Shown here one piece after another: positions 2,729 through 15,635 of a stretch of 18,915 bases of DNA (its first letter is position 1; every line of letters begins with the position of its first letter). The stretch comes from Kerstersia gyiorum (GTDB taxonomy: Bacteria; Pseudomonadota; Gammaproteobacteria; Burkholderiales; Burkholderiaceae_B), in the NCBI RefSeq assembly GCF_004216755.1, contig NZ_SGWZ01000004.1, positions 125,144-144,058 on the forward strand, read 5' to 3'. Position numbers and translations under genes: made by a program. Below the pieces are notes generated by a model. The model worked only from the letters and a program-made list of their open reading frames with translations, did not search any database and had not been told where the DNA came from.

Positions 2729-2774
2729 TGGAGGCGCAAGCCGGAATCGAACCGACGTACACGGATTTGCAATC
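2729..2774. repeat. attL: 46-bp perfect copy of the 3' part of tRNA-Cys (CCA end to anticodon loop), a displaced non-functional fragment
   Basis: tggaggcgcaagccggaatcgaaccgacgtacacggatttgcaatc is identical to 15590..15635. Identity stops at 2775/15636, and no 5' half of a tRNA follows. Confidence 0.85.
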
Positions 2775-2973
2775 GGTTCCGGTGAGCACCAATGTTCGAC
2801 TATGTTAGCTAAAACAATGAGTTATCAAATTAGGTCGTGATCATTGATCGACTATATATGCCATTGCTGTCGACGTTTCGTCGTCAGTTTTATAGACGTA
2901 GCGCATTAAATTCGATACGAATTATGATCTTAGTTAAGAGGAAAATTCAATGCAGCCCAATGTCGGGCCGATA

Positions 2974-5034
2974 TTAAGTTATATTTACGGATTCGGTATT
3001 AACAAAGCCCAAGCCTAATATCTGAATTTTCTTTGCGTCATCCCCTAAGTCTAATTTCCAGCGTCGCTCCATAAACGACAATAAGCGAATACCTCTTTCG
3101 ACAATGTGGTGCGCTGTCCATTCAGACTCTTGTGCCACTTCTATTTCAGAATAGCACCCATAAAGATAGCCGGCTTTTTTGGCCTTGCTACCTTTCTTTT
3201 CATCAAAAGACCGATTACCTAAGGCTGAATTTTTTTGGCGAGATAAAGGAACTAAATTTCCAATAGAGTTCTTTAATACATTCCGTTCCTTTACGGAGTA
3301 GCATTTAAACCTTGCGTCCCACTGAGTTTTAGAACTCTTTTGTGGATATATGTGTTCTATGGTGACATAGTCCGATTCAAATTTCTCTTTTGAAAACTCT
3401 TCCCAATCTAACTTTGAACGATTACTCCTTGATGCAGCAAAAAGCTCCTGCTCATATTCAAATAGGAAATAGCGAACAGCACCCCATCCATAATAACCGC
3501 TATTTTTTCCAAATTTTTTCAAAGCATCTAGGAAATCTTTTGATTTTATGAATTTTTCGCAAATATCATGCATTGAGTTGCCGATAGCTGCAAGAGTTTT
3601 CTTTCCTGCGATATAGCGCGCAGCATCCTCCAAGAAATCAATGTCTCTAAAAAACCAACCGGAGAATGATTTAAAAAACAAAATTCGTTCTAGAGTCTCG
3701 AGAAAATTTACTCTCTCCTGAAGAGAGTTTTTGCTCTTGTAAAGAGAGACTACCATTACAGACGCGTCGTACACAGAAAATCTACGTATGCGTTCTAGCA
3801 ATACTTTCTCATGGCTAGAGAACTTCCCGTTTCCAGGGTCTTGGGTTTGATAATATATTTGTACGGTTTTCTTTATATCTAAAGCATACTCGTGTATTTT
3901 CTCTGCTGACAGTTCAATGTTGACTTTATTGAATACTGTATCAGAGTCAATGTCAATTTCATCGGACTCAGTGCAAGAATCACTGCATTCAGACTTGTTA
4001 GCTTCATTGCCGTACAAATTTCTTACATTAAAAACGCTTTCAAGGAGGTAGTCCTTGTATCCATCATTGTGTCTGTATGCGTAAAGGCCTAGGCTGTTTG
4101 AGGCTTCAGCATAATCCGATTTTGGTAGATTGACATTAAAATATAGAATAAATTGTAAGAGAAGGAATTGGTCGTCAACAAGCCTGCGCTTAGGGTTCCT
4201 GCCGATGTAATGATAGGCGGATTTCCAGCACTCATTGATTGTTTTTCGAAGGCGAGACCTGTCGTGCTTGCTGTCCAAGTCTTCAGTGTTAAACTTGGTA
4301 GATAAATAAATAAGTCTGTTTTTTAAAAGTTCAAGGTGAGAAAGAGGCTTTCCTCTGTTGTTCATAGTCTCGAAGGTGACAAAAACGTCTATATCTTCAG
4401 AGATAGTGAAAACATTGAACAACATGTTTTGAGATACTTTCGTATAAACCTCCTCCAATTCAGCGAAGGACATGGCAGAAAGTTTCTCATCAAAAAAATC
4501 TCTGGCTGCCTGCAGATTGTATGTGTAAATGGTGTCTTCAGGGAGCTCATGATTATTTGACTGTTCTTTAAAAATTTTTGTTTTTAAAAATTCATAGCTT
4601 GGATTGTCTTTTTCATATCCAAAAACATATGATCGCGATATTCCGCCATCTCGCGTTTGAAATATAAATCGTTTCCTGACTTCGTCAACAGTGTCGTAGT
4701 TAAGGGTTTTTCCTTCTGGAGTATGATCCAAAATTGATTGAATAAGAATAATTGCAGTGGTGAGACGCTGCTGCCCATCCACAACGAAATATGGCTTAAA
4801 GTTTTTTGACTCTATTATCCACAGATCATCTTCCCATATTTTATAGATGGCAGGCGAAACTGCTTCCAATGTAAGAACGCCTGTGTAATGCTTCTGTCCA
4901 AACCCAAGTTGACCTAAATCATTCCAAAAATCCTTTAATTGCTTTGGTCCCCATGAGTAGCCACGCTGATAGTCAGGTATTCGATAGAGATACTCATTAA
5001 AAGCTTTTGAGAGTGATAGAAGCTCAGTTTGCAT
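2974..5034 (-). CDS. GmrSD-family (DUF262 N-terminal + DUF1524 His-Me finger C-terminal) nuclease-like protein; candidate modification-dependent type IV restriction / anti-phage enzyme
   Basis: The 686-aa product has N-terminal IPDYQRGYSW and VVDGQQRLTT (DUF262 signatures). The C-terminal TIEHIYPQ ... NSIGNLVPLSRQKNSALGNRSF is the DUF1524 HNH-like signature. The gene and its flanks are strikingly AT-rich compared with the rest of the window. Confidence 0.88.
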   Translation of the reverse strand: MQTELLSLSKAFNEYLYRIPDYQRGYSWGPKQLKDFWNDLGQLGFGQKHYTGVLTLEAVSPAIYKIWEDDLWIIESKNFKPYFVVDGQQRLTTAIILIQSILDHTPEGKTLNYDTVDEVRKRFIFQTRDGGISRSYVFGYEKDNPSYEFLKTKIFKEQSNNHELPEDTIYTYNLQAARDFFDEKLSAMSFAELEEVYTKVSQNMLFNVFTISEDIDVFVTFETMNNRGKPLSHLELLKNRLIYLSTKFNTEDLDSKHDRSRLRKTINECWKSAYHYIGRNPKRRLVDDQFLLLQFILYFNVNLPKSDYAEASNSLGLYAYRHNDGYKDYLLESVFNVRNLYGNEANKSECSDSCTESDEIDIDSDTVFNKVNIELSAEKIHEYALDIKKTVQIYYQTQDPGNGKFSSHEKVLLERIRRFSVYDASVMVVSLYKSKNSLQERVNFLETLERILFFKSFSGWFFRDIDFLEDAARYIAGKKTLAAIGNSMHDICEKFIKSKDFLDALKKFGKNSGYYGWGAVRYFLFEYEQELFAASRSNRSKLDWEEFSKEKFESDYVTIEHIYPQKSSKTQWDARFKCYSVKERNVLKNSIGNLVPLSRQKNSALGNRSFDEKKGSKAKKAGYLYGCYSEIEVAQESEWTAHHIVERGIRLLSFMERRWKLDLGDDAKKIQILGLGFVNTESVNIT

Positions 5035-5084
5035 CGTTATACCTTATAAGTACATGTGCTCTTCAATTGGAAATATCTGAACAA

Positions 5085-5114
5085 ATTATAGCTTCTGCTA
5101 CACAAGAAAATGAA
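5085..5114 (-). promoter_or_regulatory. Candidate sigma70 promoter for the GmrSD-like gene
   Basis: On the minus strand there is a perfect TATAAT (5090..5085) with TTCATT 18 nt upstream (5114..5109). An AAGG SD lies about 7 nt before the ATG at 5034. This is a sequence match only. Confidence 0.3.
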
Positions 5115-5159
5115 AGATCTTCAAATTGATGAAGCTTAAGCCTATGCAATGTTAACCAG

Positions 5160-14549: not shown

Positions 14550-15537
14550 GTCAGGCTGGTTGGTTGATATCCAGCCTGGAGGGCGTGGTGGTCGGCGGTT
14601 TAGAAAGACGTTCCGTACGCAAGCCGAGGCGAAAAGTTGGGAAGCATGGATAAAAACTCAAGTCAATCTGGCGACCGATTGGGAGCCAGAAAAACGAGAC
14701 ATGCGCCGCCTCTCAAGTTTGGTAGACCTCTGGTACTCGCATCACGGTACCGGTTTGGCTGCTGGACATGACACCTTCAAGCGTTTGAAGGCAATGACCG
14801 CAGCGATGGGTGATCCTGCTGTCGATTTGTTTAGCGTCAATACGTTTGTCGCGTACAGAACAAAGCGGTTGGATGCTGGGATCTCCGCAAACAACATGAA
14901 CCGTGAGCATGCCTACTTGAGGGCCATGTTCAACGAGTTGGCCCGGCTGGGATACTGGAATAAGCCTAACCCACTAGGAAAACTGCGCCAGTTCCGGGTG
15001 CAGGAGGCCGAGCTAACCTACCTGACTGATGAACAGATTGTGAGGCTGTTGGGCGAGCTGCGGGCGTCGAGGAATCCGCATGTCGAGCTGATCACGCGGT
15101 TGTGTCTCGCTACCGGAGCAAGGTGGAGCGAAGTCGAGTCTATGCGGGAATCGCAGGTTCACGATGGGTTTATCCAGTTTGCGCGAACCAAGTCCACAAA
15201 GACGCGGGCTGTACCGATTGATCGAGAGCTGGTTGACGAGGTGCGTAAACACAATCAGCGCCATGGGACGTTGGGGAAAATTTTTGCGTCGAGCATGCCT
15301 GCGTTTCGCATGGCGCTAGAGCGTTCGAAGATCACTTTGCCTGATGGGCAGATGACCCATGTGCTGCGTCATACCTTCGCGAGTCATTTCATGATGAATG
15401 GTGGGAACATTCTGACTCTGCAACGCATCCTGGGGCATTCGACAGTCACCGTCACGATGCGCTATGCCCATTTGTCGCCCGACCACCTGCAAGAGGCGAG
15501 GGCGCTGAACCCTCTGACGCGGTTGACACTTCGTTGA
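14530..15537 (+). CDS. int: Tyrosine-type site-specific integrase (P2/HP1-like size class)
   Basis: The 335-aa product has the C-terminal catalytic signature ...ATGARWSE...HVLRHTFASHFMMNGGNILTLQRILGHSTVTVTMRYAHL (R, H-x-x-R, H, Y). It lies directly beside the tRNA-Cys attachment site. Confidence 0.93.
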   Translation: MALQKTESGWLVDIQPGGRGGRRFRKTFRTQAEAKSWEAWIKTQVNLATDWEPEKRDMRRLSSLVDLWYSHHGTGLAAGHDTFKRLKAMTAAMGDPAVDLFSVNTFVAYRTKRLDAGISANNMNREHAYLRAMFNELARLGYWNKPNPLGKLRQFRVQEAELTYLTDEQIVRLLGELRASRNPHVELITRLCLATGARWSEVESMRESQVHDGFIQFARTKSTKTRAVPIDRELVDEVRKHNQRHGTLGKIFASSMPAFRMALERSKITLPDGQMTHVLRHTFASHFMMNGGNILTLQRILGHSTVTVTMRYAHLSPDHLQEARALNPLTRLTLR

Positions 15538-15544
15538 CACCAGA

Positions 15545-15580
15545 ATGAAAAAAGGACCTACGTCAGAAACGTAAGTCCTT
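15545..15580 (-). terminator. Rho-independent terminator of tRNA-Cys (bidirectional position, also follows the integrase stop)
   Basis: The stem pairs 15552..15562 with 15570..15580 (11 bp with one C.A mismatch). On the minus strand it is followed by TTTTTT. It is homologous to the hairpin at 2692..2720. Confidence 0.6.
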
Positions 15581-15589
15581 GATTTCATT

Positions 15590-15635
15590 TGGAGGCGCAA
15601 GCCGGAATCGAACCGACGTACACGGATTTGCAATC
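15590..15635. repeat. attR: 46-bp repeat forming the 3' part of the intact tRNA-Cys
   Basis: Identical to 2729..2774. Confidence 0.85.

Follow-up and report, generated by a model that had tools for sequence, protein, structure and literature searches.

A probable temperate inovirus with its own secretin at a tRNA-Cys gene of Kerstersia gyiorum: integration site, mosaic relatives and a cargo slot

Filamentous phages (inoviruses) of the Ff/IKe type (M13/f1/fd) encode their own secretin, pIV; the Ff phages are episomal, with 6.4-kb genomes that have no integrase, repressor, att sites or accessory slot. The temperate Pf4 and Pf6 of Pseudomonas, similar in size to the element described here with genomes of about 12 kb, are integrated in tRNA genes by a tyrosine integrase of their own. 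Pf phages lack pIV and rely on a host secretin (PMC10011098). A prophage of Cupriavidus STM 6070 has been reported with a pIV secretin, a tyrosine recombinase and integration in tRNA-Met (PMC10011098), and the catalogue of Roux et al. (2019) includes 582 inovirus prophages in genomes whose att sites lie within a tRNA gene or beside an integrase. Here we analysed an 18,915-nt stretch of DNA from Kerstersia gyiorum (hereafter the window). Its positions 2775-15635 are very probably one integrated temperate inovirus genome, 12,861 bp as a circle, which has its own secretin and entered tRNA-Cys by means of a tyrosine integrase. The features that define the integration site are the following.

2729..2774, no strand: attL core, the displaced 3' 46 nt of tRNA-Cys, adjoining the host left flank (repeat; left side matches the empty sites of two sister species)
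15590..15663, minus strand: intact tRNA-Cys(GCA), whose 3' 46 nt (15590-15635) form the attR core (ARAGORN, repeat, empty-site alignment)
14530..15537, plus strand: tyrosine integrase of the P2/186 type, 335 aa (Pfam Int_N 7.8e-35, Phage_integrase 2.8e-19)

The repeat finder reported a direct repeat at 2716-2774 and 15577-15635, with a spacing of 12,861 bp. Positions 2729-2774 and 15590-15635 agree perfectly (46/46), while the 13 further bases are only weakly similar; by our own estimate, the chance occurrence of a 46-mer repeat in 18.9 kb is ~1e-19. ARAGORN found a single tRNA in the window, and its coordinates, taken together with those of the repeat, identify the repeat as the tRNA-Cys 3' end up to the anticodon loop. 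An earlier reading of the window (the original prediction) had placed a 46-bp repeat from the 3' portion of tRNA-Cys at both ends, the intact tRNA at the right end and a 335-aa integrase ending 52 bp from it, and all of this was borne out.

In order to locate the insertion we compared the flanks with two sister species of the same genus (G001 and G002). In both, the left flank (to 2774) and the right flank (from 15548) are contiguous and overlap at one intact tRNA-Cys. Base-level alignment showed that the empty sites equal the left side of attL and the right side of attR, joined exactly at the 46-bp core. Since the flanks are joined in both sister species, the 12,861 bp are an insertion exactly at this core. 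Neither species has the same 12.9 kb without a flanking repeat, an arrangement that the original prediction had named as speaking against it; both sites are empty. The phage side of attR (15545-15589) is a diverged copy of the tRNA-Cys terminator hairpin (compare 2683-2728), indicating that integration substitutes phage DNA for the terminator of the tRNA as well as for its 3' end.

The genes between the two att sites, listed from the integrase towards attL, were assigned as follows.

13800..14549, plus strand: Pf4r/Pf6r-like repressor with a C-terminal extension, 249 aa (profile of 50 homologues against the PDB)
13054..13735, minus strand: three small early ORFs (86, 63 and 78 aa), the 78-aa one a candidate Cox/Xis-type helix-turn-helix protein (phrog_1864 3e-7)
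11954..13057, minus strand: rolling-circle replication initiator (Rep), Rep_trans (Pfam PF02486 1.2e-15)
11616..11927, minus strand: putative gV-like single-stranded DNA (ssDNA)-binding protein, 103 aa, OB fold (phrog_4994 2.8e-31; AlphaFold2 model)
11161..11613, minus strand: two small ORFs in the pVII/pIX position, of 80 aa (C-terminal hydrophobic segment) and 68 aa (gene order; phrog_3679 3e-5 for the 80-aa ORF)
10864..11106, minus strand: major coat protein precursor, 80 aa, with signal peptide, hydrophobic core and basic C-terminus (phrog_2186 "virion structural protein" 5.9e-14)
9334..10710, minus strand: pIII-like receptor-binding minor coat protein with signal peptide and C-terminal anchor (phrog_7187 1.8e-94, residues 55-506)
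9039..9326, minus strand: pVI-like minor coat protein (Pfam DUF2523 6.2e-11; N-terminal half hydrophobic)
7983..9035, minus strand: pI (Zot-family) assembly ATPase (Pfam Zot PF05707 8.4e-29)
6735..7982, minus strand: pIV secretin, 415 aa, signal peptide (Pfam Secretin PF00263 5.8e-23; tblastn matches are inovirus pIV/gspD, including IKe, f1 and fd)

Pfam and PHROG matches confirmed the predicted succession of Rep, gV-sized ORF, two small ORFs, coat protein, pIII, pVI, pI and pIV, all on the minus strand, which is the gene order of the Ff phages. Every domain named in advance (Zot, Secretin, Rep_trans, Phage_integrase, DUF2523) was supported, and these profile matches, the structure matches and the empty sites together uphold the identification of the locus as a temperate inovirus with its own secretin and an integrase for tRNA-Cys. 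The term "Ff architecture", used in the original prediction, applies to the gene order but not to the replication protein: Rep is a PF02486 protein, whereas gII of the Ff phages belongs to a different Rep family, and a Pfam search at E <= 0.01 gave no match to PF05144 (gII-type replication protein).

The secretin gene abuts that of pI (7982/7983), and tblastn with the secretin found pIV of f1, fd and IKe at 26-28% identity. In pI, we recognized a Walker A motif (GLMGSGKS, residues 8-15), a Walker B motif (IICIDE, 92-97) and a single transmembrane segment (229-247). The pIII ORF spans 9334-10854 and encodes 506 aa with transmembrane segments at both termini, while the homologue in the related contig L171 (see below) has 457 aa. 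The start is probably M49 of this ORF (coordinate 10710), which leaves a 153-nt gap after the coat gene. The ORF matching phrog_7187 fits a pIII protein by position and topology; tblastn with pIII against deposited phages gave no match. The two small ORFs in the pVII/pIX position are 91-100% conserved in close relatives. For the 103-aa protein, sequence searches of the PDB gave no match. Its AlphaFold2 model (34 homologues, pLDDT 89) has an OB fold, and among the 50 best PDB fold matches listed, 46 were SSB/PriB chains and the rest other OB-fold DNA-binding or polymerase subunits, which makes a role of the gV-sized ORF as ssDNA-binding protein plausible.

The integrase shares 47.6% identity with Int of phage 186 and has the complete catalytic set (R198, H277-x-x-R280, H303, Y312). 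Its gene is overlapped by 20 bp by the repressor gene, forming an operon. No Pfam match was obtained for the repressor ORF. A profile built from its homologues matched Pf6r (5.1e-8) and Pf4r (1.9e-7) over the N-terminal ~90 residues; the value for the single sequence was 0.007. The N-domain is thus homologous to that of the Pf repressors, but the protein has an extra C-terminal half of ~150 aa. The 78-aa ORF is divergent from the repressor gene, as are the repressor and Xis-type genes of Pf4/Pf6. It had no Pfam match and no tblastn match in phages, and Pfam searches of the small ORFs at relaxed thresholds returned nothing credible. The structural genes of Pf4/Pf6 are not detectably close to those found here.

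To see how common such elements are, we collected 159 related loci (designated by L numbers) from genome contigs and IMG/VR with the pI sequence as query, and determined their gene content by tblastn of all window proteins. pIV was present in 143 of these loci, pVI in 154, pIII in 148, an integrase homologue in 76 and a repressor homologue in 67. In fifty-four loci, pIV occurs together with an integrase at 40% identity or more. A tRNA adjoins int in 34 of these 54, and for 28 a second att copy (46-80 bp) was found beyond pIV; the targets of these 28 are tRNA-Met (14), Phe (4), Thr (3), Lys (2), Cys (2), Ser (2) and Leu (1). The layout is constant: tRNA, int, repressor, early genes, Rep, structural genes, pI, pIV, variable slot and att. 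Many of the 159 loci are already in IMG/VR.

The original prediction had regarded the combination of a private secretin with an integrase as unusual. This argument fails, since 54 of 159 loci combine both, 28 of them share the tRNA/att layout, the STM 6070 prophage has been published (PMC10011098) and many more integrated inoviruses were catalogued by Roux et al. (2019). The STM 6070 prophage, which is locus L076 of our set, resembles the element in its tRNA, tyrosine integrase, repressor homologue, pIII, pVI, pI, pIV, slot and att repeat, with identities of 41% for pI, 53% for pIV and 56% for Int. Unlike the element, it targets tRNA-Met, carries other cargo without the GmrSD gene described below, and has an Ff-type pII (PF05144) as its Rep (PMC10011098). 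The element is a well-documented further case of a known, catalogued kind and not an oddity, and filamentous phages that both integrate and encode a secretin of their own are common, contrary to the textbook impression.

Within the host family, which includes the Corticimicrobacter and Castellaniella genomes (the loci from the family search and from the wider pI search coincide), the distribution is patchy: of the 151 species searched, 4 have a pI homologue, this genome included; the sister species G001 and G002 lack one. The best relatives among deposited phages are gut-metagenome inoviruses (pI 38%, pIV 43%), followed by IKe and f1. This group of hosts (Alcaligenaceae-type Burkholderiales) is without a close cultured filamentous phage.

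About 4 kb of the element (2775-6734, from pIV to attL) is accessory cargo, a part that the original prediction did not cover. It contains the following features.

2974..5034, minus strand: GmrSD-family (DUF262+DUF1524) type IV restriction enzyme, 686 aa, low-GC (GmrSD_N PF03235 5e-31, GmrSD_C PF07510 1.7e-17)
5165..5324, no strand: conserved non-coding hairpin cluster, 160 bp (79-93% in L012, L013, L094, L014 and L026)
5374..6057, plus strand: calcineurin-like (lambda-type) phosphoesterase, a lineage-conserved accessory gene (Pfam Metallophos 1.6e-13)
6050..6295, minus strand: accessory 81-aa lipoprotein with lipobox LSAC (read from the sequence; homologous region in L013 and L094 by blastn)
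6417..6731, minus strand: 77-aa ORF (6464-6697) bracketed by perfect 21-bp direct repeats at 6417-6437 and 6711-6731 (repeat finder)

The GmrSD domains occupy residues 9-241 (PF03235) and 506-652 (PF07510), the PADLOC model HEC-06 matched at 8e-41, and the translation shows the DGQQR and EH..P/N..N motifs. Most likely, this enzyme would protect the lysogen, and hence the prophage, against phages with modified cytosines. With 37-39% GC, compared to ~57% for the phage and ~61% for the host, the gene appears to have been recently acquired. Relatives of GmrSD were not found by tblastn among the 159 loci, and Pfam identified one other ORF with a GmrSD_N domain among 109 ORFs that we took from 28 delimited slots between pIV and att (0.4-7.7 kb). 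Among database sequences, the closest homologue (79% identity) comes from the inovirus contig L171, where it immediately follows pIV, while remoter homologues (73-56%) occur in chromosomal, defence-island or plasmid settings. The phage phosphoesterase is 90-93% identical in L012, L013 and L094, and the lipoprotein had no family match in profile searches.

The closest relatives revealed a mosaic history. Among the Corticimicrobacter relatives L012, L013 and L094, the latter two match positions 5171-13610 of the window at 88-90% nucleotide identity over 8.4 kb (87-90% with L012 included), and L012 does likewise, save for a divergent stretch from the 77-aa ORF to the lipoprotein and the middle of pIII. 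The integrases of these three loci are 59-62% identical to that of the window and target tRNA-Met, and GmrSD is absent from them. L023, a metagenome-assembled genome of Paenalcaligenes, sits at tRNA-Cys. L171 (Logan contig ERR4405853_11034, 10,492 bp) is a complete inovirus of this lineage with both ends inside a tRNA-Met-like att; its pIII-to-pIV block shares 82% nucleotide identity with the window, and its integrase is of the tRNA-Met type. Identities of individual proteins to those of the window differ between modules.

L013: pIV 97%, Rep 96%, Int 59%
L171: pIV 95% and pI 85%, Rep 33%, Int 61%
L023: pIV 78%, Rep 86%, Int 75%

Judging from these comparisons, the modules for replication, integration and morphogenesis have evidently changed partners. 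The element is one member of a large and mosaic clade of inoviruses, most of them from beta- and gammaproteobacteria, which have this layout in common and exchange replication modules, integration modules and cargo. The idea that Int, attP and GmrSD were exchanged as one 4.4-kb segment was weakened by L171, in which GmrSD lies beside a different, tRNA-Met-type integrase. No terminal overlap as a sign of circularity was found in nine related contigs (L013, L092-L094, L097, L098, L100, L102, L104). The ends of L171 overlap by 11 nt inside the tRNA-Met-like 3' half, as a de Bruijn assembler (k = 31) leaves for an att repeat of ~49 bp; this fits assembly breakage at a repeat and does not distinguish a prophage from a circle.

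The integration geometry and the gene identities are shown by the sequence, and they suggest the following life cycle. Recombination of attP with the 3' end of the host tRNA-Cys makes the tRNA whole again at attR and leaves the original host 3' end, now displaced, at attL, with the phage supplying the copy of the tRNA 3' end and the look-alike of the terminator hairpin. In the lysogen, the Pf4r-like repressor, co-transcribed with int, would silence the divergent early operon (the Cox/Xis-like gene, two small ORFs and Rep), and GmrSD would be expressed against phages with modified DNA. Upon induction, the 12,861-bp circle would be cut out by Int together with the Xis-like protein. The Rep_trans protein would then initiate replication by the rolling-circle mode, with the OB-fold gV-like protein covering the single strands. 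Finally, the pI ATPase and the phage's own pIV would extrude through the envelope, without lysing the host, a particle sheathed in the major coat protein and bearing pIII, pVI and small proteins at its ends. Excision of a circle and release of filamentous virions are steps that we infer from the gene set.

These two steps separate an active temperate phage from a cryptic or defective prophage, inserted as described above, that no longer excises or makes particles and is kept for its cargo (GmrSD, phosphatase). The latter is possible but rather unlikely. It would agree with the lack of evidence for a circular form (the attP-junction scans of contigs gave 0 matches), with the single copy of the element in the genome and no episomal contig, and with the clearly decayed state of a relative at tRNA-Cys in Castellaniella, L047. 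However, the ~14 phage genes are all full length, the core genes also by comparison with relatives at 87-90% nucleotide identity over 8.4 kb, which have the same ORFs. The catalytic and Walker motifs are intact, the att copies agree at 46 of 46 positions, and its absence from the sister species suggests that the element arrived recently. A host secretion or competence module (secretin plus Zot-like ATPase) in a genomic island was given almost no weight. Secretin and Zot domains do occur in cellular systems, and control genomes gave non-phage matches to the Zot model, but here the full inovirus set (Rep_trans, OB-fold SSB, coat, pIII, pVI) stands in canonical order, the nearest relatives of the secretin are inovirus pIV proteins, and the whole block is missing from the sister species. 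It is also very improbable that two tandem elements occupy tRNA-Cys, namely a GmrSD island (2775-~5170) and an inovirus (~5170-15589), of which the integrase mobilises only the latter. The sharp GC breaks at ~2790 and ~5150, the fact that L012, L013 and L094 share only 5171-13610, and the tandem att copies at tRNA-Cys in L023 and L047 would be in line with such a pair. The idea was dropped because a search of the interior, allowing up to 12 mismatches out of 46, detected neither a further att copy nor another piece of a tRNA gene. Moreover, the 30 bp just inside attL (2775-2805) resemble an attP arm and are conserved with other tRNA-Cys elements, L171 carries its 79% GmrSD inside a 10.5-kb inovirus unit with both ends in att, and 27 of 28 relatives have their cargo ORFs placed between pIV and the distal att.

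Several further points weigh against a single, active inovirus or against parts of its annotation. An exact pattern scan of metagenome and viral contigs for the predicted attP junction gave 0 matches, a result that is uninformative. The DNA of 6735-13735, which had been proposed for comparison from the outset, found no match among deposited phages in distant mode, and no cultured phage is close. Of the repressor/Xis-like switch in the original prediction, the repressor stands on its Pf6r/Pf4r profile, whereas its partner, the 78-aa ORF, gave a weak profile match to P2 Cox (E = 0.045). The fold matches of the 103-aa protein are consistent yet modest in score (E ~1e-3, TM 0.4-0.55). From position only, we infer a pVII/pIX-like role for the two small ORFs; likewise by position only, and by likeness to the intergenic region of Ff phages, a packaging signal and/or a complementary-strand origin is the probable role of the hairpin cluster. 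The function proposed for GmrSD is that of its family. With these reservations, the inovirus annotation has exact boundaries, an empty-site control and an assigned or positional role for every gene.

The most interesting aspect of the inovirus is the slot that carries its defence cargo. The 109 slot ORFs of the relatives were searched for similar functions. Matches to known systems comprised HamA and HamB of Hachiman (L055), LmuA of Lamassu (L060), AbiLi (L053), RloB, PD-Lambda-5_A (L033), RmrA (L027), a GajB-like helicase (L017), NsnA/PD-T4-2 with a HEPN protein (L023), a NACHT-associated iREase with a RelA/SpoT-like protein (L016), a RES toxin (L075) and MTaX1-HNH with a methylase (L045). 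LmuB models matched three ORFs, for which the loci were not resolved. Candidate systems were PDC-S06 (L083), PDC-S25/SIR2 (L091) and PDC-M60 (L019), and RM-like genes as well as many type II toxin-antitoxin families occur across the slots. These calls are single-protein HMM matches and not proof of complete systems, and the enrichment is qualitative, as no control region was scored.

A comparable accessory hotspot, enriched in defence and toxin-antitoxin genes, has been described as one variable locus in the filamentous/tailless prophages of Vibrionaceae (PMC11630473). The filamentous prophages of Vibrio, however, integrate at dif via the host XerCD and usually lack an integrase, whereas the clade studied here is tRNA-integrating and secretin-encoding. 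The defence-cargo slot extends the published Vibrio pattern to a new clade. We lean slightly towards the view that the slot between pIV and attP is a general defence-gene shuttle in such inoviruses, across Burkholderiales and neighbouring orders. In these small phages, which would be secreted chronically without lysis, the slot would carry complete systems (Hachiman, Lamassu, AbiL) as well as single-gene ones (GmrSD). The same GmrSD cassette beside different integration and replication modules, together with the varied slot content, suggests that cargo is exchanged by recombination at conserved flanks, for which the end of pIV, the hairpin cluster and the two 21-bp repeats are candidates. The part that non-lytic filamentous phages play in spreading defence genes may therefore be underestimated, and the uncharacterised slot ORFs are a reasonable source of new defence systems.

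The 21-mers of the window recur unchanged around a homologous ORF in L013 (8462-8482/8775-8795) and L094 (11968-11988/12284-12304). The 77-aa ORF is only 53-79% identical in these two loci, while the adjoining pIV is 97-98% identical, and the repeats look like a cassette-exchange or protein-binding site. The hairpin cluster has a DNA fold of ~-49 to -50 kcal/mol with an 11-bp perfect stem, and every relative with such a cluster has it between pIV and int in the circular map. This GC-rich cluster is present once in the window and twice, with copies 86-92% alike, in L012 (1758-1932, 13744-13926) and L094 (255-411, 13370-13525), where the copies flank attP and cargo in the circular map. In L026, it (2933-3053) is on the int side of att. 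The tRNA-Cys genes of L023 (14581-14633, 15535-15584) and L047 (8139-8202, 13814-13886) are each accompanied by two extra att copies, which indicates tandem occupancy of tRNA-Cys. In the decayed inovirus of L047, int and Rep survive only as fragments, and L023 has a 13-copy array of a 108-bp tandem repeat at 14959-17034, around and beyond the outermost att copy.

The host flanks of the window contain further genes. A calcineurin-like phosphoesterase is encoded at 1861-2613, 116 bp outside attL; it is a 46%-identical paralogue of the phage copy (5374-6057) and is found at this locus in G001 but not in G002. We considered that the host gene might be a fossil of an earlier integration and dropped the idea, as no old att remnant is found upstream of it. 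The ORF at 294-1304 encodes a DNA/RNA non-specific endonuclease (Endonuclease_NS 4.6e-45). To the right, an AraC-family regulator (16658-17674) is preceded by a stretch of 40% GC (15900-16800), the ends of which align to G001 while the middle (16253-16507) does not. The ORF at 18312-18915 runs off the window and has 21- and 42-nt periodic repeats that encode seven-residue units (GNISTLQ/GDVSTAQ). Its product is probably a repetitive protein of the surface or adhesin type, and G001 has a flank homologous to this region.

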